From Eledone cirrhosa (taxonomy: Eukaryota), in assembly GCA_964016885.1 (NCBI GenBank), contig OZ024743.1, positions 144,832,001-144,896,000 on the forward strand: 64,000 nt of DNA, in the 5' to 3' direction. The translations under genes were made by a program, and so were the position numbers. The notes beneath the pieces were generated by a model. The model saw only the letters and a program-made list of their open reading frames with translations, was not told where the DNA came from and made no database searches. Within the stretch, counting starts at the first letter, position 1. Every line of letters begins with the position of its first letter. Positions 3,194 through 64,000 of this stretch are shown here, piece by piece.

Positions 3194-3244
<51 letters not shown>

Positions 3245-3432
3245 CTTTAGGTTTGTTGGTTCACCACTGGATAGAATTCCGTATGGTCAATCTTGGTGTA
3301 ATATTGTGGAGAGTACTCAACGTAGTGCAGTTCACCCGTCTTCGTTTGTGTAGTTGGTGGTGCGAATACGGAGTTAATTATAAATAAAAATAACAGGAGG
3401 TTGGACTGGTGTAAATCCTTGAAAGGTTTATT

Positions 3433-3490
3433 ATACTATGATCATTTCAATGACCGGGTTCCATATGAATCCGGTGATATCATCAGGTAT
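3433..3490 (-). ncRNA. Hammerhead ribozyme motif (family A, inverted pLTR)
   Basis: Reverse complement of the 4363-4420 motif. Confidence 0.85.
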
Positions 3491-3681
3491 TCGAAATATA
3501 ACAAAGGAATATGTAAAAACCATGGGTCCGAAAAATCAGAGACAGAGAGGACGCCTGGCCAACTAGCTGCCTTTCACCTCGGCCAGTCGCCCTCAAAGTG
3601 ATGGCTACTCGTTCTGCTGATGACCATCTGGTGAGGGGGCGAAGGCTTATAATGTACCTCTCCGTCAAAGAATAAAAAAGG

Positions 3682-3715
<34 letters not shown>

Positions 3716-3818
3716 AGAAAAAAGAAAGAAATCAGCGTAAGGGTCACACTACTGTCAAGCTAGAAAACGCCGCGAAAAATGTTATTCTAAAGAATCTATA
3801 TTTTAACAAAGGCATATA

Positions 3819-4002: not shown

Positions 4003-4362
4003 ATAATGGGTGTCTGTATGGTCTAATGTGTGAACAGAAAATTGGAACGTTAAACTTAAAATATAGATTCTTTAGAATAACATTTTTCGCGACGTTTTCT
4101 AGCTTGACAGTAGTGTGACCCTTACGCTGACTTCTTTCTTTTTTCATCTTTTCTTTCTTTCTTCCCCTTTTTTATTCTTTGGCGGACAGGTGGTAGTACA
4201 TTATAAGCCTTCGCCCCCTCACCAGATGGTCATCAGCAGAACGAGTAGCCATCACTTTGAGGGCGACTGGCCGAGGTGAAAGGCAGCTAGTTGGCCAGGC
4301 GTCCTCTCTGTCTCTGATTTTTCGGACCCATGGTTTTTACATATTCCTTTGTTATATTTCGA

Positions 4363-4420
4363 ATACCTGATGATATCACCGGATTCATATGGAACCCGGT
4401 CATTGAAATGATCATAGTAT
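4363..4420 (+). ncRNA. Hammerhead ribozyme motif (family A, upstream pLTR)
   Basis: atac CTGATGA tatc-accgg...ccggt-catt GAAA tgatca TA gtat. Stem I atac/gtat; palindromic ATGATCAT stem III; predicted cleavage after 4416. Confidence 0.87.
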
Positions 4421-5301
4421 AATAAACCTTTCAAGGATTTACACCAGTCCAGCCTCCTGTTATTTTTATTTATAATTAACTCCGTATTCGCACCACCAAC
4501 TACACAAACGAAGACGGGTGAACTGCACTACGTTGAGTACTCTCCACAATATTACACCAAGATTGACCATACGGAATTCTATCCAGTGGTGAACCAACAA
4601 ACCTAAAGAAATAATGCTCCAATAATGTTGAGAACTTCCAAATGTAATATTGAACAGTGGTACTGACTTCTGTGTACAGCTACCGCCAGCTTGGGATTAA
4701 TTGATCTGCTTACCATTCGGATTTTGGCTGCTCTGTGCTTTGTCTACCGCCCACCCGATGCTGCTTCCCTGTCGGGAATATTCGGATTCCGACAAAATTC
4801 TACGTATTATACTAAAACATGTATTGTATTGACTGAATTCTCTACTCTATACCTCAGGACTTCTTTTGTGACTCACACTGAATTTGGAGATCCGAACTTT
4901 ACACTAGGTACCACCTGTCACCATTCCATCTCTTCCATCCTCTATTATCTTACTACAACTTGATCTATATTGTATTTCTATTTTGCTCTGATTCCTCCGA
5001 TATGTTCTTATATACTTCCGTCTTACTACATCACTACCCTAGCTATGAAGACGTTTTAGTTATGTATTTTACTTTTTACTTTTATTAGTTTATTAATGTA
5101 TTTTTATCAATGTATTCTTTATCTTTGTATTTTATTTTTATGTAACTTTCCTTACTCAGGTCATTATGCACCTTTCATAGCCCCCTACCCACCAAAGAAA
5201 CACACTACTTATAACCCGGACTAACTGGGACTTTAAAATAATTATAGTCTATTTGCACCCTTTATCGGGTTTTGCTACCTTCGATTGATGTGGTGGCTTT
5301 T

Positions 5302-5430
5302 CCCGGCTGCGTGATGGGCGCTCGGAAAGTTCAGCCTTCCTTGAGTGCTTGGAAAAATAAATTTCCCCTCTTTCGGTAAACGAAATTACTTGGAGCGGCT
5401 TTCTTTGCCCCCGGCCCGCCGCGCCGCCTG
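5302..5430 (+). ncRNA. Unassigned structured RNA motif, copy X1 (three-way junction in a GC-rich stalk)
   Basis: ttgagt/acttgg closing the hairpins ggaaa-aataaa-tttcc and tttcg-gtaaa-cgaaa. Homolog at 30707-30838 (-). Confidence 0.6.
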
Positions 5431-5586
5431 TTTTGGCCGCCACATTATACTTATCCCTATAAACTCTAGGCTTAGGCATAACTGTTAGCTGTATCATGCC
5501 TCTACTGGCACGTAAATAAACCCCCCTCATGTGTGAATTAATAGTATTCGTTTGGTATTGACGATGGCCTGTCGAAATTGTAGACT

Positions 5587-5716
5587 TCCCGCTAGCACAC
5601 CCGGGGCCTAGGGTAGCTACGTTCCTAGAGTACTCGGAAAAATTAATTTCCATTTCTTTCGCTGGACGATACCACTCGAAACTGGCTGACACGTGGTTAG
5701 GAGGTGCTGGCTGGGA
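5587..5716 (+). ncRNA. Unassigned structured RNA motif, copy X2
   Basis: Stalk gctagcac/gtgctggc; gagt/actc closing ggaaa-aattaa-tttcc and tcg-ctgga-cga; extra hairpin ctgac/gttag. Homologs at 30433-30558 and 31157-31282 (-). Confidence 0.6.
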
Positions 5717-6034
5717 CTCACAATCGAATGTTTTAATCTTTACTATATCCAACCTGATATTTTATCGAGATTAACTTTTTCATATAAGACTCTCTCTGTA
5801 AGTTCATTAAATAATTTTTTTTTTTTCCCAATTTTAAATTTATTATTTTTTAATTTAATTTCATCCTATAACCCGTAACATAAGTTTAACGTTCCAATTT
5901 TCTGTTCACACGTTAGATCATACAGACACCAATTATATATGCCTTTGTTAAAATATAGATTCTTTAGAATAACATTTTTCGCGGCGTTTTCTAGCTTGAC
6001 AGGAGTGTGACCTTACGCTGACTTCTTTCTTTTT

Positions 6035-6090
<56 letters not shown>

Positions 6091-6282
6091 TTTTATTCTT
6101 TGACAGAGAGGTGGTAGTACATTATAAGCCTTCGCCCCCTCACCAGATGGTCATCAGCAGAACGAGTAGCCATCGTTTTGAGGGCGACTGGCCGAGGTGA
6201 AAGCAGCTAGTTGGCCAGGCGTCCTCTCTGTCTCTGATTTTTCGGACCCATGGTTTTTACATATTCCTTTGTTATATTTCGA

Positions 6283-6340
6283 ATACCTGATGATATCACC
6301 GGATTCATATGGAACCCGGTCATTGAAATGATCATAGTAT
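6283..6340 (+). ncRNA. Hammerhead ribozyme motif (family A, downstream pLTR)
   Basis: Identical to 4363-4420. Confidence 0.87.
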
Positions 6341-6380
6341 AATAAACCTTTCAAGGATTTACACCAGTCCAGCCTCCTGT

Positions 6381-6422
<42 letters not shown>

Positions 6423-7332: not shown

Positions 7333-8844
<1,512 letters not shown>

Positions 8845-10420: not shown

Positions 10421-11249
10421 AAGAATGAGAAATTAAGAAGATTGAAGGGACAGATAGGGCGGAATCTGAAAAAATGTTTTTAGAGAAAAATAACAGGTCC
10501 ATTTATGTTGCTATCCCTTGGAAAACTGTTGATGCTGGCGTTTTGTGTGTGATATACTTAGAAAAGTGGATGGTGGAGCGCGTCTATCTAAAATAGAAAA
10601 TAAATTGTTTTACACATAGAGCTATACGTGTGTGCGCGCGCGCGCGTGTGTGAAGCAAGAGGATATTTGTGTGTATATGTAAGTAAAAGAGTGTGTGTGC
10701 TTGTAAGTACGAAGCTGTGAGCAAAAGTATGTTAATATATGGTAGTGTGTGTATGTGTGTGTGTGTGTGAACAGAGCTGTGAAGAGCAAAGTAGAGGTGT
10801 GTGTGCGTATTTTGTTGCTCTGTATCAGCAGCAAGAGTGTATGCTTCTGCCCATGAGAAAGCCATAGGAATCTAGGGGTGAATGTACAAGCGCGTGTGTG
10901 ACAACGACGAGGTAAACGTGACGGGGGGCACAAAGGGTAGAGAAGTAAGCACTAACGTAAATGTGTAATATTAAAAAAATTGAGGAGGGTAGTTAAGTTC
11001 ATCAGGGAAACAGGAACCGAGGCGGTAAATCAGACTATATATAATATATATATAGTAATAATAATAAAATTGAAGACTAAAATCCAAAGAGGGCTCGATA
11101 AGGAAAATATATATCAAATATATAAGAACCGTAGAGCAAATATTTATTAAAATAACAGATTAAAGTTTAAGCATAATCCGCGAAAAGCAGACAACAAACA
11201 GGATAAATTTGGATTTAAAACTTATAATAACCCTCCGTGGAACCCAGCA

Positions 11250-13172
11250 TTGCTACCCTTCGAAAATGATGTCTTGGAACTCATTCTGAATATCAAATTT
11301 CGGAATAGGAGCAATTCCTTCCAGCAAAACCTGAAGAATAGAATTCGTTCTATTAAGGATTCTAACGCCGTGCACGTCCATTCCGACAAAACTGGCAACC
11401 TATATCAAGTGGAGCGCAGTACTTACCATCAACTACTACATAATGCTGTAACTAAGGATTACCGTAAAACTAATCGGTGCGTCATCAATGAAATCAACGA
11501 TGCTGGGTTTAAAATCACATCTGATCTCAACATCCTGGACCGGACCGAACCTCTGGACCCTATCTCTCCCCACTTTACCATGAAGGATCACAAATCCAAT
11601 TTTTCGAACAACCCTTCTATTCGGCTTATTAACCCTACGAAGTCCGATTTAGGTAGGCTTAGTAAAACGATTCTTGATAGAATTATACCTGAAATTAGAA
11701 GTTTGGCCCCTCTCGCACTGTGGAACAATTCTTTCGCGGTGATTGATTGGTTCAACGGCATATGTAACAAGGAAGATTGCCGTTTTATCCAATTCGACAT
11801 CAACAATTACTACTCCTCCATCACTTTACCACTTCTCCTCAGAGCTATCAATTTCGCTAAAACACTCACAGTGGTTAAGGATTTTGAAGTTGATGTCATC
11901 CTTAAAGCCCGAAAGTCGGTGATTAATTTCGACGACTCTATTTGGATTAAAAAATCCAATAGTACCCCATTCGACGTGAGTATGGGCGCCAGTGACTCTG
12001 CGGAGGTTACTGATCTTATTGGCCTTTTCCTTCTTTTCTCTATCAAGGACGAATTCCCCAACGCGGGCGGTGGTTTGTACCGTGACGATGGTCTTTTGAC
12101 CATGACTAAGTGCGGACCTCGTGCTTGCGACAGGTTCAGAAAAGAACTCATAGCCTTCTTTAAAGGCTTCAACCTCTCTATACAGGTTGAGGCCAATCTC
12201 TCGGTCGTTAATTACCTCGACGTTACCCTCAATTTATTGAATGGGTTGTATTACCCGTATAGAAAGCCGAATGATACGCTTAATTACATAAGTAAGCATT
12301 CCAACCATCCTGCCAGCATAACCAAGAACCTGGTAAGAAACGTTTCGTTGAGGCTTTCCCGTCTTTCCACCAACGAGCGCATTTTCAACGGCCATTCCAC
12401 TTATTACAATGAAACTCTTGCTCGAAGTGGATTTGTCGATAAGGTAGCATATACAGTGTACGAAAATAGACCTAGAAGAAATAGATCTCGTCGCATTTGT
12501 TGGTTTAACCCACCATATAATATGGAGGTGGCCACACCATTAGCTAAGATCTTTCTTTCCCTTATTACGAAGCATTTTCCCCCTACACATAAATATAGTA
12601 ACATTTTTAATAGAAATACTATTAAAATTTCTTACTCTACGACTCCTAACCTTGCACATAACATCACAGCTTCAAATTTAGCTAAACTACCTAGCCGTAG
12701 GAACACGTGCAACCCTGTAGGTAGTACTAACTGTAATTGTAGGAATCGGGCTGATTGCCCCCTATCCGGGAAATGCCTCTCTAGTAACATTGTCTACAAA
12801 TGTAAGGTTGTAACACCCACGTCCCGTAGGGCCTACATACGGTTAACCGCCAATAGTTTCAAGCAGCGTCTTTACATGCATACCCATTCTTTTCGTTACC
12901 CTCTAAGAAGGAATATGACGTCACTTTCAGCTTATATCTGGAGTCTAAAAGACAACCACACCCAATATAAGTTACACTGGGAGATCCTAGCTAGGGCTAG
13001 ATCGTATAACGGAAATAAAAGACCATGTGACCTCTGCGCCGCTGAGGCCCTGGAAATACTCTACGCTACAGACCACATCTTAAACAAAAAATCTGAGGCA
13101 ATTTCGGCTTGTAAACATAAATTGCACAAAACTTTCCTGTATTACAGCCCCACGTTATACCCTAACGGATAG
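11250..13172 (+). CDS. PLE reverse transcriptase with C-terminal GIY-YIG endonuclease (N-terminally truncated; no ATG start)
   Basis: SDKTGNLY, IRLINPTKSDLG, QFDINNYYSSI, FDVSMGASDSAEVTDLIG, LYRDDGL, VNYLDVTLNL, SNHP, WFNPPY, CNCRNRADCPLSGKC, IVYKC..AYIRLT, CDLC, LNKKSE..CKH. PLE-like sequence continues in frame upstream to about 11175 (KFGFKT..PP). Confidence 0.93.
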   Translation: MLPFENDVLELILNIKFRNRSNSFQQNLKNRIRSIKDSNAVHVHSDKTGNLYQVERSTYHQLLHNAVTKDYRKTNRCVINEINDAGFKITSDLNILDRTEPLDPISPHFTMKDHKSNFSNNPSIRLINPTKSDLGRLSKTILDRIIPEIRSLAPLALWNNSFAVIDWFNGICNKEDCRFIQFDINNYYSSITLPLLLRAINFAKTLTVVKDFEVDVILKARKSVINFDDSIWIKKSNSTPFDVSMGASDSAEVTDLIGLFLLFSIKDEFPNAGGGLYRDDGLLTMTKCGPRACDRFRKELIAFFKGFNLSIQVEANLSVVNYLDVTLNLLNGLYYPYRKPNDTLNYISKHSNHPASITKNLVRNVSLRLSRLSTNERIFNGHSTYYNETLARSGFVDKVAYTVYENRPRRNRSRRICWFNPPYNMEVATPLAKIFLSLITKHFPPTHKYSNIFNRNTIKISYSTTPNLAHNITASNLAKLPSRRNTCNPVGSTNCNCRNRADCPLSGKCLSSNIVYKCKVVTPTSRRAYIRLTANSFKQRLYMHTHSFRYPLRRNMTSLSAYIWSLKDNHTQYKLHWEILARARSYNGNKRPCDLCAAEALEILYATDHILNKKSEAISACKHKLHKTFLYYSPTLYPNG

Positions 13173-18629: not shown

Positions 18630-21535
18630 AGGTTTCTGCCAGGTGTTGCGACCGGGAAATAGTATCGGCATTTGTAAAAACAAATGGAAACATTGTTTTC
18701 TTGGTCCGATCTGGTGAGTTCCACCCAACTCGGTAAGCGTGTGAGGTCGGGGATCTTGTTTGTTCCAGGATGGATAGATGGATGGAATATAGAATTTTAA
18801 CTAAAATTTTAGAAAGGTTTTCATATAAATATATACTTTGCGATTTGCAGCTCTAATTGAAATACAAAGGGGGAAGTTTACATACAATAAAAACGTGTAA
18901 AATGTTATCACAAATGCAATTTAAAGAATTAGTCGATTTTCCCCAATAGAGGGAGACAGTTTATATGGGTAACACATACCCCCGAAAAAATGTGAAACCC
19001 TCATCTCCAGGAGTACGAAGAGTTTGTACTCCTTTCCTCTCCTCCTCCTTTTCCTCAACCTAGAGTCTGATATAGAGAGAAGGCCCATTCACTCGGGCCA
19101 TTCTCGCCACTTTCATCCACCTTTCATAAAACTTGCTGGGGTACAGCACCTCTCTATCCATCCTGATTCTTCTTCCAAAGTGGTATTTGAAAAAAAGAAT
19201 CAGTTGTTGGCCGGAGAGAAAGGTGTCTGACCTCAGCCCTTTCAACCTTGTCCACCATACAACCTCTTTCGCCATAGCTATCACACAAAGGAAAACCGCC
19301 TCTTCTTCGTTTTTGAAGGAGGGTGGCGGTTTGATCATGACAATGGACTCGGTGGTCAACCGGATTGGTCCCACCCGCGACAATAGTCGTTCTACATAGC
19401 GACAATAGTCGTTCTACATAGCCCCACAGGTCAGTGACGCCCGGGCAGTGTATGAATGCGTGCGCGACGGTTTCTTCGTTACGCACGCACCTCGGACAGA
19501 TCTTTTTTGCAGGATCCCTTCCCGGGCGCCCATGTCTGTAGAGCTTGTCTCGAACTGGTAGAGATCCTCGGTAGCACTGCCAGGCCAGGGACTTTTGGAA
19601 GTTGTCCATCGGTCCCGGGCGGAAGGTCCTACCGAACAGACTGGCCAGTTCATCTTCCTCTACGCCCAGAGTTTCACCGAGCGCGTCGTCGCACTTGCTG
19701 CGGATCAACCCTCTATAGAATGACGAAGTGGAGTCTCCACTGATCGCCGGGTCCACCTGCCAGAGGGCTGTGAGCGCCTAAGCACATTCGATGTGCCAGT
19801 CGCCCATTTTCCTCGGTCTTTGCTTGACCCAGGACTGCAGCTCAGTCAGCGAGACGAGTCGTGGGAAGGCTCGCCTCACGAACGGGGCCCACACCGGTTG
19901 TCCGGTGAGGAATACGTAGAGATGCCGCAGCCTGAGCGCGTGTTTGCGCATCGTCAGCCACGGCATCCCCAGCCCTCCGTTGGAAGGGTGTTGGCAGCAG
20001 ATGATCTTCTCACCACAGGAGCCCTCCTCTTCCAAAGGAATTGGAAGAGTGCGCGCTCCATTTTGGTGAGCGTTTTGGCTGGACAAGGCACGAAGGCCAA
20101 GCGGTAGTAGATGGCGGACGCTATAAAAGTGTTCGCCACCTCCGCTCGACCTTTCAAGGATAGTTTGCACTCGGCCCACTTCTGGGTGAGTGCAAACACC
20201 TTGGCCGACACCTCGTTCCAATTCTTCTCCACCTGGAGGTCCTGACCAAACCAGACCCAGAGCAGCTTTACTGGTCCTTCCGTCCAGCGTACGACGCCAT
20301 CGGAAGGCATCGGTTTGCTTCTCCACGATCCGAGTTGCAAACCGATGGACTTGTCCCGGTTCGGCTTCGCTCCTGTGAACCTTTCGTATTCCTTCAGTAA
20401 GGTGCCGACTTCCTCGATTTGCGAGGTGCTCGACACCATTACTGTCACGTCGTCGGCGTAGGCCGATGCAGCTTTCCGCAGTCCCGGTTCCAGAGGGAAG
20501 CCCTGCAATAGCTCCAACTTCCGCAGTAGTGGCTCGAGAGTCAGTACGTTCAGAAGGGAGGAGAGAGGGCATCCCTGTCGAATGGATCACGTGATATGGA
20601 ACGGCTCCGAGAGGTAGCCGTTCACCTTAACCCTTGAGCAGATGTTGCTGTTATGCATTGCAGCAATCGAGCCCCTGAATACGGGTCCGAAGCCTGCCGC
20701 CTCGAGCACCGCATTCAGGTAACAATGGTCAACCCTATCGAAAGCCTTAGACTGATCCAAGTTGATCAGGGCCCCCACCGAAGCCGGGTTTACACCCTAC
20801 CCTCTCTATGATGTATCGCATGAGGTGGAGGTTGTCGTGTATGGACCTGGTCGGGATTGCGCATGTCTGTGCTTCTCCCACCAGGTTCTCATCGACAAGC
20901 GCCAGCCTCTTTGCCAACACCTTGGCCAAAATCTGTAACTCTGTGTTTAGCAGAGTTATGGGCCGGAAGTTGCCTATGTCATCCCCCTTATTCTCGTCCT
21001 TCTTGACTAGTGTGACTACGCCCCCGGTCACAGAACTGGGAATTCTCCCGTTCTGCTGCCAGTTGCAGTAGACCGCTTCCAGAAGACCGGAGAATAAGTC
21101 CGGAATTGCTACGTAAAATTCGTAGGGTAGACCGTCGAGACCTGGAGATTTGCGTTTGTCGCATTGGCTCAGCGTGTCCCCTATCTCAGCGGCTGAAATT
21201 GGCTTTTCGCAGAACTTCGCCTCGCTGTCCGAGAGTCGAGGTATGGGCCGAAATCCATAGCCCCTCCCGGCGCATCGCCCTGCCCGAACAGTTGAGCATA
21301 GTGCCGCTGAAAGGCCGCACACATCTGCTTCGGCTCACGTATCACGCGTCCGTCTTGGTCCTTCAAAGACCGAATTGTGGACTTGGTGCCACTTTTTGCC
21401 TCCGTCACTCGGGCCCAGCTAACAGCTTTGGCTCCCTCGCTTCCCAGAGCACGTATTTTGCTTCTGACAACGCAGCCCTCGTGCTTTGCGTCGAAGAACT
21501 GGTCCAAGGCCGTTCTCGTTGCTAGCACGCTGGCT
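18630..21535 (-). mobile_element. 5'-truncated, frameshifted L1/Tx1-clade LINE (ORF2 RT and C-terminal zinc motif, 3' UTR)
   Basis: KSPGLDGLPYEFY, NFRPITLLNTE, LDQSKAFDRVDH, RQGCPLSPLL, AYADDVTV, GGLGMP, CPRC..EETVAHAFIHC. Coding ends near 19060; 3' boundary approximate. Confidence 0.93.
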
Positions 21536-21569
21536 GATAGATAGATAGATAGATAGATAGAGAGAGAGA

Positions 21570-21620
<51 letters not shown>

Positions 21621-21623
<3 letters not shown>

Positions 21624-22200
21624 AGAAACAAAAGAAGCTGTGTGGTTACTATAAACAAGGTTTAGGATGGTCGTATGGACGAAACAAGAGAAGAAAAGAA
21701 AAGGAGAGAATCCTTCGTCAGCTGTAATCCGCGATCAAGATGTTTCGGCGCTTATTTACAGGACATCTATAAGCGATCAGATCAGAGGAGTTTTACGACA
21801 AGTGTAAACACGTTGTCAACAACCGAAAACGAACGGATGGATAAAGAGAGGGAGAGAGAGAACGAGAGAGAGGAGGAAAAATGGAAGAGAGAATGGGAGA
21901 GTCGATGCGAAAGTGTGGTGGGACCACAGATCGAACAAAACAGGTAGAGGAGGGTAACAGCGGTAAATACAAAATGATAAGAAACGAAAGGAGCTGTGTG
22001 GTTACTATAAACAAGGTTTAGGATGGTCGTATGGACGAAACAAGAGAAGAAAAGAAAAGAAGAGGTAAAAGAGAAAAAGGAAGAAAAAAGAAGGAAAAGA
22101 GAAAGAAGAACAAAGGAGGAAAGGTGGTGAGGAGAGAGGAAGAAAGAGAAATAAGAGAGAAAAAACAGGTGAACAGACCCCATCGTGGGGGTCCAGGACA
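21621..22200. repeat. Unclassified element with a direct repeat of about 80 bp, 356 nt apart
   Basis: ataagaaac..gctgtgtggttactataaacaagg..gaaaagaaaa at 21621 and 21977; lies between TA tracts. Confidence 0.7.
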
Positions 22201-29295: not shown

Positions 29296-29468
29296 AAACG
29301 AAGGAAGTGTGGTAAGGAACCAGATGGACCATAACGCACCAGAGTACTCAATACTTAGGGTAGTAGAGTGGGTAATAGGAAAATGTTTAACCCCGACGGC
29401 ATATTTCTGGTCCAGAAATAGCCGTCGAAACTGCTTCAGCTCTGCCGTCGGGGTTAAACATTTTCATA
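29296..29468. repeat. Fold-back of family B pLTR (subfamily variant)
   Basis: Tail, then aaaatgtttaaccccgacggca ... tgccgtcggggttaaacatttt. Confidence 0.85.
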
Positions 29469-29478
29469 TATATATATA

Positions 29479-31932
29479 TTTAGGTTTGAAGGTTCACCAC
29501 TGGATAGAGCTGGTCAATTCCGTGTGGTCAATCTTAATGGAGAGTACTCAACGTAAAGCAGTTCAACCGTCTTCGTTTTTGTAGTTGGTGGTGCTAGTAC
29601 GGAGTTAAATATTATAATAAAATGAGAGGAGGCTGGACTTGTGTAAATCCTTGAAAGGTTTATTATACTATGATCATTTCAATGACCGGGTTCCGTATGA
29701 ATCCGGTGATATCAGGTATTCGAAATATAATAAATGAATGTAATAGATAAAATCAATGGGGCTGAAAATCAAAGACCGGAGGACGACCGACCATCTAGCA
29801 TCTTCCACTTTAGCCGGTCGCCCTCAAGTGCTGGTTATTCGGTCTACTTGAGGCTATCTGGTGAGAGGGCTAAAGCTTATAGTGTGCTACTACCCTCCCG
29901 GTCAAATAGAATAAAAACAGAAAGCGAGAGGAAGATAAGTCATGCTACAAGAAAAAAGACAGAAAGAAGGGGGAAGAAAAGGAAGAAGAAGAAAAGTCAG
30001 CGTTAATGTCGAGCTACAAGAAGAAAGACAGAAAGAAAGAGGAAGAAAAGTCCGTACTAATGTCAAGCTACAGTCAGGCCAGGAATGGCGCGAAAAAAAT
30101 TTATTCTAAAGGACCCGTATCTTAACAGAGGTATATATTATAACAGAGGTAAATATAGTGGGGGTCTGCATGTTATAATGTGTGAGCAGAAGATTGGAAC
30201 GTTAAATCTTTGTTTAGATTTATAGGATGAAGTTACAAAAATTTAATATTTAATATTAACATTATAAAATTAAAGAAATTAGAAAATTGAAAATTAAACA
30301 GTTTAAAATTTTTAAGATTTTGGTTGCGAGGTTTAAGTAAAGAAAGAGTCTTTTATGAAGAAACTTAAAATATATTATAGAGTAAAAATTATGTCTTTAT
30401 TTAGCAGTCAAACAGCATGCGGCGACTGCAGGCTCCGGCCAGCCCATCCTAACCGCGTGTCAGCCATTCCGAGTAAGATCGCCTAGCAAAAGATATGGAA
30501 ATCAATTTTTCCAAGCACTCTAGGAATGTATAACAGGCTTCAGGTGCGCCAGTGGGAAGTCAGCCCTCATCGTTAGGCCATCCTTGTATCAAACCAGTAG
30601 TATTAATTTACCCAGGAGGGGGATTTGTTTAAGTAGAGGGAGTCGTGATACATCTAATAGTTATGATTAGTTCTATAATATAAAGGTACTATATGGCGGT
30701 CAAAAATCCGGCTGCGCGCCAGGCCCCTGGGGCGAATCATCCGCTCCGAGTAGTTTCATTTACCGAAAGGAGGGGAAATTTACTTTTCCAAGCACTCAAG
30801 GTAGGCCTATGCGCCAGGAGGCCGGTCCCGCCGCCAGGAAAACGAACCCAACAGTCCGACAGAAAATTGGAACGTTAAATTATTGTTTAGATTTATAGGA
30901 TGGAGTTAAAAAAATTAAAGATTAACATTATAAAATTAAAGAGTTAGACAATTGAGAATTAAACAATTAGAAAATTGAAAATTAAACAGTTTAAAACTTT
31001 TTTAAGGTTTGGGGTTGCGAGGTTTAGTTAAAGAGAGAGTCTTTTATGAAGAAACTTTAATTGTATTATAGAGATCCTCTATAAGTTATGCTAGTGGGAT
31101 GTAGAGTAAAGGATATGTCCTTGTTTAGCAATCAGACAGCATGTGGCAACTGCAGACCCCGGCCTGCCCATCCTAATCACATGTCAGCCATTCCAAGTGA
31201 GATCGCCTAGCGAAAGATATGGAAATCAATTATTCCAAGCACTCAAGGAATGTATTCCAGCCTTCGGGTGTGCTAGTGGGGAGTCATCCATCGTCGTTAT
31301 GCCGTCGTTATGCCAAACGAGTACTATACAGGAGAGTCCGGGTAATATGTATTTTTGTTCTCAGGGGGAGACATTCTAGTGTCGTGTGCTAATGGGTACA
31401 AGCGAGTAAAAGTCCGAATAAGAGGAGTAAAAAATACATGGATATATAGAAGTAGAATACGTGGAAAAAGCACATTAATAAAGCAAAGGTAGAAAGATAT
31501 AAATAAACAAACAAGAGTGGTGGTGGAGTAAAATGGAGAAATCAGAACACAGGAGAAATACAATATAGTTCAGGTTGCAGTATTTTTGTTCTCAGGGGGA
31601 GACATTCCAGTGTCGTGTGCTAATGGGTACAAGCGAGTAAAAGTCCGAATAAGAGGAGTAAAAAATACATGGATATATAGACGTAGAATACGTGGAAAAA
31701 GCACATAGAGGGAGGCGTGCTACATCTAATAGTTATGATTAGTTCTATAATTTAAAGGTACTATATGGCGGTCACCAGATAGCCTCAAGTAGACCGAATA
31801 GCCAGCACTTGAGGGCGACCGACTAAAGTGGAAGATGCTAGATGGTAGGTCGTCCTCCGGTCTTTGATTTTCAGCCCCATGGATTTTATCTATTACATTC
31901 ATTTATTATATTTCGAATACCTGATGATATCA
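29479..31932 (-). mobile_element. Rearranged family A subfamily copy (tail, broken HHR, X2, X1, second X2, internal duplication of 230 nt, terminal inversion)
   Basis: Homologous to 3246-3700 and 5290-5950. tatttttgttctcagggggagacatt at 31351 and 31581. About 31773-31932 is inverted relative to about 29705-29862. Confidence 0.85.
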
Positions 31933-62119: not shown

Positions 62120-64000
62120 GTGAGATTAGATGATTTTGAAATTCCCCCACTGACACACTTACAGACACACTTACAGACACATCTACAGACACAGACCCCT
62201 CATCTACCAGTAGTGAAGATGAGGGAAAACCAAAATCCCTCAAAATACAAAAAAGGAAACACAAAAAGAATAAAAAACTCAACAAAGCACAAAATCACCC
62301 ACCATAAAAAACGCAGACACTACCCACGCAAACATCTCTCCAATAACACCAACATCAACACCACCATCACCATCACTAGAATCCCCCAAACGCAAACAAC
62401 CTAAACAGATGCAAGAACAAATATACACACAAACATCTGAAACCACAGACACCGCACTCACAACAAACACAGACACAACCGAAACAACACCACCAAAACC
62501 ATCACCACCACAGCCACGCAAACAAATAAAATCACACCAACAAAACATACAAAACTTCGTGCTCGTCAGGAGGGCCAACAAGGAACTGATGGCCCTCGTA
62601 GCACGAAGTGAAAATATACAAAAAGAGGGGGAAATTTTTAAATCGAGCACATTTCGCGTGCCGGAAGATTTGGTTCTGGTGCGAATGTCGATCGATGTAT
62701 ATAAAGAAATACGAAACAGCTTTCCTCGGGACGTGGGAACCCCGAATGTAAAACCAACTTCAAGACTTTTAAAGGGGTTCCCAAAAGAAACCCCACCAAC
62801 TACGGAGGTCGAACATCCCGACCTTCACAAGAGCCCGGAAGGTAAGTAAACCTTTCCTCTCTCTCTCTTTAACCTGCCAACATGGCCGTATTAAGAGTAG
62901 GATGTTTAAATGTTCGAGGCCTGGGATCGTCCTGGAAGCAGGGTCACCTGCTCAATGACCTCAGGTCTCTAGAAATGGATGTAATTGCAGTCAGCGAGAC
63001 CAGGATTTCCGACACGCACGCACTAGCCCCCATTTTCGACGACTATCAGATCTTTGCATCTGTTAGCCGGCCGGGAATGGGAGGCGGGGTGGCAGTGCTG
63101 TTTAGGAAAGGCCTGGATCTCGAGGTAAGGTCGATCTTCCGGGACCCGGACGGGAAGTTGGTGGTCCTGGACGTGAACAATAACGAAGGTGGTGCCTTTA
63201 GACTGGTGCCGTCTATGCTCCTACTGAGGCAGGACGGCTGGACTTCTTTAGACGCCTAGAAGCCTTTCTGGGTACGTCTCGCCCTTCACTGTTAGCGCGG
63301 GACTGGAACGGCATCTTAGACGCACGCTGGGACTGTGTGGGAGTATCCGATAGGAGCGGGGGCTGCAAAAGCCTCAAGAACCTGATCAGCCAGTTCCAAC
63401 TGTCTGACAGGTACCGACTAGATTTCCCTAATGCGCCAATGTGGACCTGGGCTAACCGCATAGGGTCATCTAAGACAGGATATTCATTAGGAAAATAGAC
63501 AGAAATAGTGTAAGCTGTCTACGTTTTGAAACGGTCGCCTATTCAGATCACAAGTTTGTGATATGTATGGTCGACCTAGATAAGACGCGTAGGTTAGGAC
63601 CTGGTTACTGGAAGCTAAACATATCATTTACGGCACGTAAGGCTTACAGGGACCAGGTTAACAATTTAGTTAAGAAAAAGTTGACAGGGGGAGTCGTCAA
63701 CAATAGATGGTGGGGGGCTCTCAAAAGAGAGATTAGAGTAATGTCGATAGAGTTTAGCAAAGAAGTAGCGTTAGAGAAAAATAGAAAGGAGGGGGAGTTG
63801 GTAGATAAGTTAGACGAGGCTATAATCAGGATTGGTGGGGTACCTGAGCGAACCCTAGGTGGTCATCCCCCCCCCCCTATTGGGGAATTTTTTCTTGTAA
63901 TTTTATTGTTACTTTATTGTTACTTTGTTATTGTTACTTTGTTATTGTTATTCATGTTGTTTACTCGATTTTTCTGTAAAACCCCACTGTCCCAGTCTTT
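62120..64000 (+). mobile_element. L1/Tx1-clade LINE 5' part: putative ORF1 remnant and frameshifted ORF2 APE endonuclease (from 62882), joined to a 3'-UTR-like tail
   Basis: LRVGCLNVRGL, DVIAVSETR, GGGVAVLF, VYAP, DWNG, WTW, SDHK, GPGYWKLN. Coding similarity stops near 63830. Confidence 0.88.

Follow-up and report, generated by a model that had tools for sequence, protein, structure and literature searches.

The analyzed window is a 64,000-nt stretch of the Eledone cirrhosa genome (contig OZ024743.1, positions 144,832,001 to 144,896,000, forward strand). It contains a non-coding Penelope-like element and a second, diverged subfamily on the opposite strand (Table 1). In 30 fetched copies, the unit was approximately 1.9 kb (1,920 nt) and occurred in partial tandems and inversions with (TA)n ends. 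The pseudo-LTRs stand in partial tandem with inverted 5' copies, as is characteristic of Penelope-like elements, and the 3' ends of the copies cluster at two places, the pattern of an optional tail. The long T-rich frame at 4420–5250 carries stops common to copies, as well as frameshifts in the second subfamily, and the single long frame over the motif described below had no Pfam hit. The element is therefore regarded as non-coding, and a decayed protein frame, named in the original prediction as a possible cause of the motif's conservation, was not borne out, the stops of the body frame being common to copies.

Table 1. Coordinates of the element, its hammerheads, the leader modules, and the motif copies in the window
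Feature	Position	Strand	Remarks
Non-coding Penelope-like element	4056..6394	+	pseudo-LTR 4056-4613, body, pseudo-LTR 5948-6394 ending (TA)n
Inverted pseudo-LTR	3241-3806	inverted	belongs to the element at 4056..6394
Second, diverged subfamily	29466..31706	-	68% identity over 1.2 kb; three motif copies
Type I hammerhead (predicted)	4363..4420	+	palindromic stem III (UGAUCA)
Further hammerhead (predicted)	6283-6340	+	
Further hammerhead (predicted)	3433-3490	-	
Further hammerhead (predicted)	29665-29719	-	core minus 3 nt
Leader module 1	4479..4541	+	ACUC-C ... G-UU-GAGU-ACU
Leader module 1, other copy	3312-3374	-	
Leader module 1, other copy	29543-29605	-	
Leader module 2	4616..4637	+	GCUC-C-AAUAAU-G-UU-GAG; one base off the intact box of L002
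Motif copy A1	5302..5430	+	core 5339-5393; G+C-rich stalk around core; short T run after
Motif copy B1	5587..5716	+	core 5624-5679; bulge UA; last G of closing strand is A
Motif copy B2	30433..30558	-	core 30469-30524
Motif copy A2	30707..30838	-	core 30746-30801
Motif copy B3	31157..31282	-	core 31193-31248; third copy within second subfamily

The pseudo-LTR carries a predicted type I hammerhead, for which the core, stem I, and the palindromic stem III can be read in the sequence. The subtype (CUGANGA-NRUCA...CAYU-GAAA) had 11,641 exact matches in the genome, distributed over several families; it is an unusual, putative ribozyme whose stem II has an internal loop at its base. Approximately 100–150 nt upstream of the hammerhead lies a G+C-rich paired region (4216-4265 and 6137-6186 on the plus strand, 3588-3637 on the minus strand), in which CCCUCA...UGAGGGCG closes an inner stem; it was kept in the A subfamilies seen, including those at L205 and L206. 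Elsewhere in the window, broken LINE-type frames were found at 19154-21645 (-) and 62873-63259 (+), with reverse transcriptase (RT), zf-RVT, and endonuclease hits among both, and a 673-codon open frame at 11151-13172 (+) had no Pfam match.

When positions were re-read in the window, the five copies of the motif lay at the predicted places and on the predicted strands. The core of A1 consists of CC-UU-GAGUG-CUU, a GGAAA/UUUCC hairpin, a UUUCG/CGAAA hairpin, and UACUY-GG. The exact core pattern was matched 1,178 times in the genome (~3.0 Gb searched) and its reversed control 0 times, so the matches are not due to chance; 887 matches were obtained when the closing ACTYGG was also required. A covariance model trained on 38 natural copies found exactly five motifs in the window (80–97 bits; next-best 12 bits), three of which belonged to the training set and were thus recovered by construction. 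The motif had been predicted to belong to no known class, and this held: the window's 103 Rfam matches (to E 1) all fell outside the motif coordinates, and no Rfam ribozyme, SECIS, telomerase RNA, or tRNA covariance model matched there. Between families A and X, the core was the best-kept 50-nt window (0.82 vs. 0.56 overall, the last windows of the comparison being unaligned). The motif has been multiplied to two or three copies in subfamilies, and the diverged family X has one. In L205 (403-632), two motif copies meet head to head at an inversion junction, which falls right on the bulge side of the cores.

In the proposed fold, a closing helix (CC-UN-GAGUG/YACUC-GG) with a two-base U-N bulge encloses a CUY linker, the GGAAA/UUUCC hairpin, and a second short hairpin. 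This three-way junction is plausible. The three stalk pairings quoted in the original prediction are present in the sequence. Its description of the core as covarying was not confirmed, pair counts being no better than in shuffles. In the alignment of 38 copies (MAFFT), 86.8% of 717 cells paired, 485 of 500 shuffles were as high, and the covariation score lay below the shuffles. For 47 model-aligned copies, the corresponding values were 85.2% of 890 cells and 354 of 500 shuffles, and six pairs had changed on both sides, which is marginal (22/500 shuffles). Both alignments misplace the second hairpin of family X by one column, which hides one U-A to A-U change seen there by eye. Since core pairing is mostly unchanged sequence and is matched by shuffles, covariation is not established.

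Folding programs gave a mixed picture. RNAalifold recovered both hairpins from 12 A-type copies, only the GGAAA hairpin from 12 B-type copies, and the closing helix and stalk from neither set. The junction was the minimum-energy fold in one of the five window copies (z −0.25 to −2.16) and the lowest-energy fold in nine of 16 natural representatives, the other seven folding otherwise. Stalk arms paired better than shuffled arms in 10/16 representatives, and when stalk arms were swapped, the own partner beat all other-type partners in only 3/16. The strand had been argued from G-U wobbles, which proved to be partly a matter of CpG decay; the strand itself was correct, as judged from the hammerhead and the leader module (see below). 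The wobble at 5391 is private to the window copy, C being present in 6,910 of 6,936 depth (contigs, one sample).

The hammerhead subtype was followed to ORF-bearing elements (L231, L232, L281, and L283). RWK, DKT, a CxCx5C linker, a C-terminal nuclease, and (TA)n targets were found in these partners (L231/L232, L281/L283), the second part of the linker being absent from L281 and present in L283. RWK, DKT, and CxCx5C are described as Hydra-clade features by Craig et al. (2021, PMC8557442), and they occurred in 91, 102, and 94 of 107 aligned proteins, respectively. Because no copy combining an ORF with family A's own pseudo-LTR was found, the partner can be assigned only to its clade; at that level, the window element appears to depend on Hydra-clade Penelope-like retrotransposons. 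Families Y and Z have a leader layout like that of family A, and Y also has the same hammerhead subtype. One locus (L126) with a family A piece beside an ORF was rejected as a link, that piece being a separate insertion. The search for the motif in autonomous elements, proposed in the original prediction, gave 0 hits in 100 own-genome loci (50 with GIY-YIG, 20 regions picked by hammerhead, and 30 Hydra loci), and no junction was found in the foreign Hydra-like loci, of which 100 of the 104 were searched (best E 3.8).

The Hydra proteins had no Pfam hit, and single-protein scans (metagenome and viral contigs) and an alignment scan (viral contigs) returned no relatives. Residues R34, R36, W37, and K/R38 in the first helix of the protein were near-invariant. 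A protein model (pLDDT 89) had TERT structures among its best fold matches (TM 0.35), which supports kinship of the modeled RT with TERT and other RTs, not a shared RNA fold, and gives no specific indication of how RNA is bound. Contigs labeled as bacterial genomes (L363-L388) also contained Hydra-clade retroelements that had hammerheads and ended in (TA)n; such bacterial- or prokaryote-labeled contigs are probably host DNA in bins.

Between the hammerhead and the ORF, Hydra-clade elements carry in tandem a bulged hairpin, RCUC-stem-loop-UN-GAGY-RCU, referred to here as the leader module; its UN-GAGY-RCU strand is the box. In the own genome, about ten hammerhead families had the hairpin 3' of the hammerhead, and L231 and L281 each had two of them ahead of the ATG; it was not seen in the Neptune-type tails inspected. 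The foreign test set consisted of 104 Hydra-like loci from metagenome and prokaryote-labeled contigs, of which 58 included the protein N terminus and 34 had a hammerhead core 80–330 nt upstream; 27 leaders were distinct below 70% identity. With a strict, sequence-only box, 21 of the 27 had two boxes, four had one, and two had none, the six shortfalls being two GCAC/GUGC variants, one N, two near-boxes, and one short leader. In an earlier count, 40 boxes were obtained in 30 leaders (null mean 0.5, maximum 4), along with nine on the reverse strand and five inside ORFs. Boxes within leaders were spaced 57–82 nt apart.

The pairs of the module covary in foreign leaders. Pairing partners were picked by sequence alone and compared with shuffles that ignore relatedness. 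The pair beside the bulge was Watson-Crick in 43 of 45 cases (29 C-G, 14 U-A), compared with a null mean of 24 (P 2e-4); the corresponding counts were 23/41 (null 11) for the second pair and 22/30 (null 9) for the third. Pairing was also kept in the GCAC/GUGC variant of L363 and L366. Module 1 has the form ACUC/GAGU in the own genome vs. GCUC/GAGC elsewhere. No Rfam match was obtained in 12 Hydra loci. Among published sequences, Hydra-1_Ajap begins at module 1 and has both modules before the ATG, two other Hydra consensus ends have one module each, and four of six places with three 9-mers in the supplement of PMC8557442 were leader modules.

The insertion ends form two clusters, one per leader module. 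Module 1 lies just 3' of the first end (~4466–4470) and module 2 just 3' of the second (4613); TA likeness makes such end positions uncertain by a few bases. Contigs from another run had loose ends at 4466 and at 4613. Of 120 distinct TA-ended copies from families A, X, Y, and Z, 111 terminate 0–20 nt upstream of RCUC, while a proportion of about 0.2–0.27 would be expected with uniform ends. The offset of the ends to the RCUC strand is fixed whatever the loop length. A similar offset was found in seven of eight foreign cases, one judged by eye against the second module.

A precedent for such start sites is the PAc element (Poseidon, Anolis), in which, according to Frangieh et al. (2024, PMC11167929), two internal starts 3' of the hammerhead bound the tail, and the protein needs RNA 3' of the start, within the first 172 nt of the ORF, with no binding motif defined. 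The Hydra leaders would likewise have two start sites and a tail; unlike in PAc, the candidate signal lies before the ORF, with one hairpin per start. Given this precedent and ends just upstream of the modules, each module is interpreted as a docking site that sets one start, and the two leader modules likely define the pair of RT start points behind the Penelope 'tail'. As a template start site, the motif was rejected, since nearly no insertion ends occur at cores. Only two loci had a TA run inside the core, none had one just before the stalk of A1, and none of 49 sampled cores had a TA run within 150 nt.

The closing helix of the motif (C-UN-GAGU-RCU/ACUC-G) is a circularly permuted leader module, with the box first, ACUC last, and the two hairpins between. 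It has the box and the complementary RCUC strand, and lacks the hairpin order of the leader module (RCUC first) and the purine before the bulge. The pair beside the bulge is flipped, with C before the bulge and G after RCUC, an orientation seen in 0/43 paired leader modules. The motif carries its own genome's module-1 form, ACUC/GAGU, not the foreign GCUC/GAGC. The 1,920-nt unit has the box U-N-GAG-Y-R-CU in leader module 1 and the two motif cores and nowhere else, and in the whole window, 13 of 16 boxes are in motif cores (5) or leader hairpins (8). In autonomous elements, the module is a plain bulged hairpin with no junction. When junction and tail were aligned, derivation of the junction from a tail by deletion gave P 0.003–0.06 for X- and A-type cores vs. 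X tails and mixed results for the B type (uncorrected, many tests); the alignment was mostly not significant against A, Y, or Z tails or for the hairpins alone.

Recruitment of the RT, one of several roles originally proposed, is now the leading reading of the motif, because the core matches the Hydra leader module that is tied to insertion ends, and not for the reason first given, a telomerase-like junction. As read from sequence, the motif copies would be extra, binding-only docking sites by which the parasite captures its partner's RT (probability roughly 0.55). The Hydra protein would bind the module and start cDNA about 5–12 nt upstream of RCUC, and two modules would yield two ends and the optional tail. 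In the motif, RCUC follows a hairpin, not a single-stranded AU-rich template, so the protein would dock without starting; this geometry fits the rarity of the motif as an end. The G+C-rich stalk would hold the two module strands together, and one to three docking sites might raise the share of the protein that the parasite RNA obtains in trans. The least certain step would be recognition of the TAR-like U-N bulge by the R-x-R-W-K/R helix near the protein N terminus.

A broader joint reading is tentative, falling a little short of even odds. In this reading, a TAR-like bulged hairpin would be the docking site of Hydra-clade RTs, copying would begin a short, constant distance upstream of it, and each start would have its own hairpin, which would explain the tail; the parasite's permuted junctions would bind without starting and would have been multiplied to outcompete autonomous RNA. 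Against docking stand the flipped pair beside the bulge, the lack of the junction in the autonomous loci searched, the non-significant core covariation, and the natural copies that fold otherwise (7/16). In addition, both junction hairpins are strongly conserved and have no clear counterpart in leaders, and since the element already has both leader modules, extra docking sites may be unnecessary. The GCAC/GUGC variants would break the U.A-U triple and thus count against a strict TAR-type reading.

The same hairpins and stalk, kept though the leaders are without them, together with the flipped pair beside the bulge, would suit a junction that binds a host factor for RNA stability, export, or localization, or that is a promoter or terminator, with the box as a duplication leftover or a coincidence. 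A stability or translation role, as first suggested, may exist; this whole group of explanations is nevertheless judged unlikely, as the most invariant letters of the core are exactly the module box and its partner strand. A-type copies end in T4–T6 after the terminal stem, as polymerase III RNAs do, which speaks for this group, but B and X types lack the T run, and no polymerase III B box was seen by eye. A yet less probable explanation treats the motif as a passenger: a structured duplicate of some age that a successful element carries along and that now has no role. The absence of significant core covariation, two broken closing-helix pairs in B1, and a hammerhead subtype about ten times as numerous (11,641) as the cores (1,178) agree with it; it fits poorly with repeated duplication of the motif and with a core kept among paralogues A and B and family X while the flanks diverge.

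The signal might also be read as DNA, by a dimeric GIY-YIG endonuclease at the near-palindrome GAG-YR-CTY, the motifs then being extra nicking or homing sites. All four YR fillings do occur, the box is also found on the reverse strand (the nine in 30 leaders above), the Drosophila virilis Penelope endonuclease needed tail sequence, and PAc is a predicted dimer (the last two from PMC11167929). Against it, a DNA site would have no need for the RCUC partner strand, whose pairing covaries, and the ends lie at a fixed offset from RCUC whatever the loop length; the chance of this explanation is slim. Slimmest is that of a new self-cleaving ribozyme, which was among the original guesses and gained no support. 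The core is compact and conserved, in an element that already uses a hammerhead, but no Rfam ribozyme matched it, its conserved letters are explained by the leader module, and cleavage within the unit would destroy the template. Docking of the partner RT thus remains the preferred reading.

SINE-LINE pairs, such as eel UnaSINE1 and UnaL2, share 3' stem-loops, so that the parasite carries a structure recognized by its partner's RT. The present case differs in that what is shared is located 3' of the region being copied, and in that the additional copies sit internally, in permuted order. The Hydra-clade elements of PMC8557442 have RWK, DKT, CxCx5C, (TA)n insertion, and hammerheads, as do the partners described here; the window element differs from them in having no ORF and extra, permuted module copies. 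Non-LTR retrozymes (PMC7229834; bioRxiv 10.64898/2026.07.22.740005) are also non-coding, Penelope-like-derived, and arranged in partial tandems with a type I hammerhead, but are described as a few hundred nt long, compared with the ~1.9-kb unit with internal structured motifs in the window.

The arginine sandwich of TAR and 7SK (PMC6189040) likewise has a short, pyrimidine-led bulge followed by G-A-G paired to C-U-C, and the bulge U of the module could form a U.A-U triple, as TAR U23 does with A27-U38 in that account. The likeness is of local geometry only and implies no ancestry; the GCAC/GUGC variants lack the A, and the adjacent RCU is conserved. Combined with the conserved R34/R36/W37/K/R38 helix, it would serve as a lead only. 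TERT binds the CR4/5 three-way junction of telomerase RNA (PMC11206666), which also has three helices, and the partner protein model matches TERT structures. In contrast to CR4/5, the motif had no Rfam telomerase match, and what recurs across the clade is a bulged helix of two strands rather than a junction.

Neither the junction nor the tandem leader hairpins were described in the literature searched, but they may be mentioned by Lunse et al. (2017) or in Repbase notes, in figures, or in bioRxiv supplements. The passages and term counts covered for the main text and supplement of PMC8557442 contained no mention of leader hairpins ('stem-loop' 0 in the main text, 'hairpin' 0 in the supplement), and the strings GAGCACU and GAGCACT were absent from the related papers searched. 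An RNA structure common to a parasite and its partner's RT is a known kind of relationship; the leader signal and its permuted use appear to be undescribed.

Penelope-like RTs form the sister group of telomerase RT. On the questions of how they choose their RNA and why they start inside it and leave a 'tail', the only in vitro study narrowed the RNA needed no further than to a 172-nt stretch (PMC11167929). With a two-strand signal of 13 letters that is linked to insertion ends throughout the clade, start sites can be predicted and these questions can be tested with short RNAs. The permuted copies offer a natural experiment in which binding is kept apart from initiation, and in which a parasite would be seen to obtain enzyme through added docking sites. 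RT-based gene insertion could likewise make use of a portable signal by which an internal start is set.

Two minor observations concern the leader hairpins. In L303, L304, and L323, the two modules can also cross-pair, the 3' strand of the first with the 5' strand of the second, giving the permuted arrangement; such cross-pairing might act as a switch in leaders and might have been a route to the junction. In the window, two other repeat families carry the leader hairpin 54–64 nt before a TA run, at 7841, 16861, and 40548 (+) and at 29351 and 41735 (-), and because of this placement they are probably further Hydra-dependent elements.
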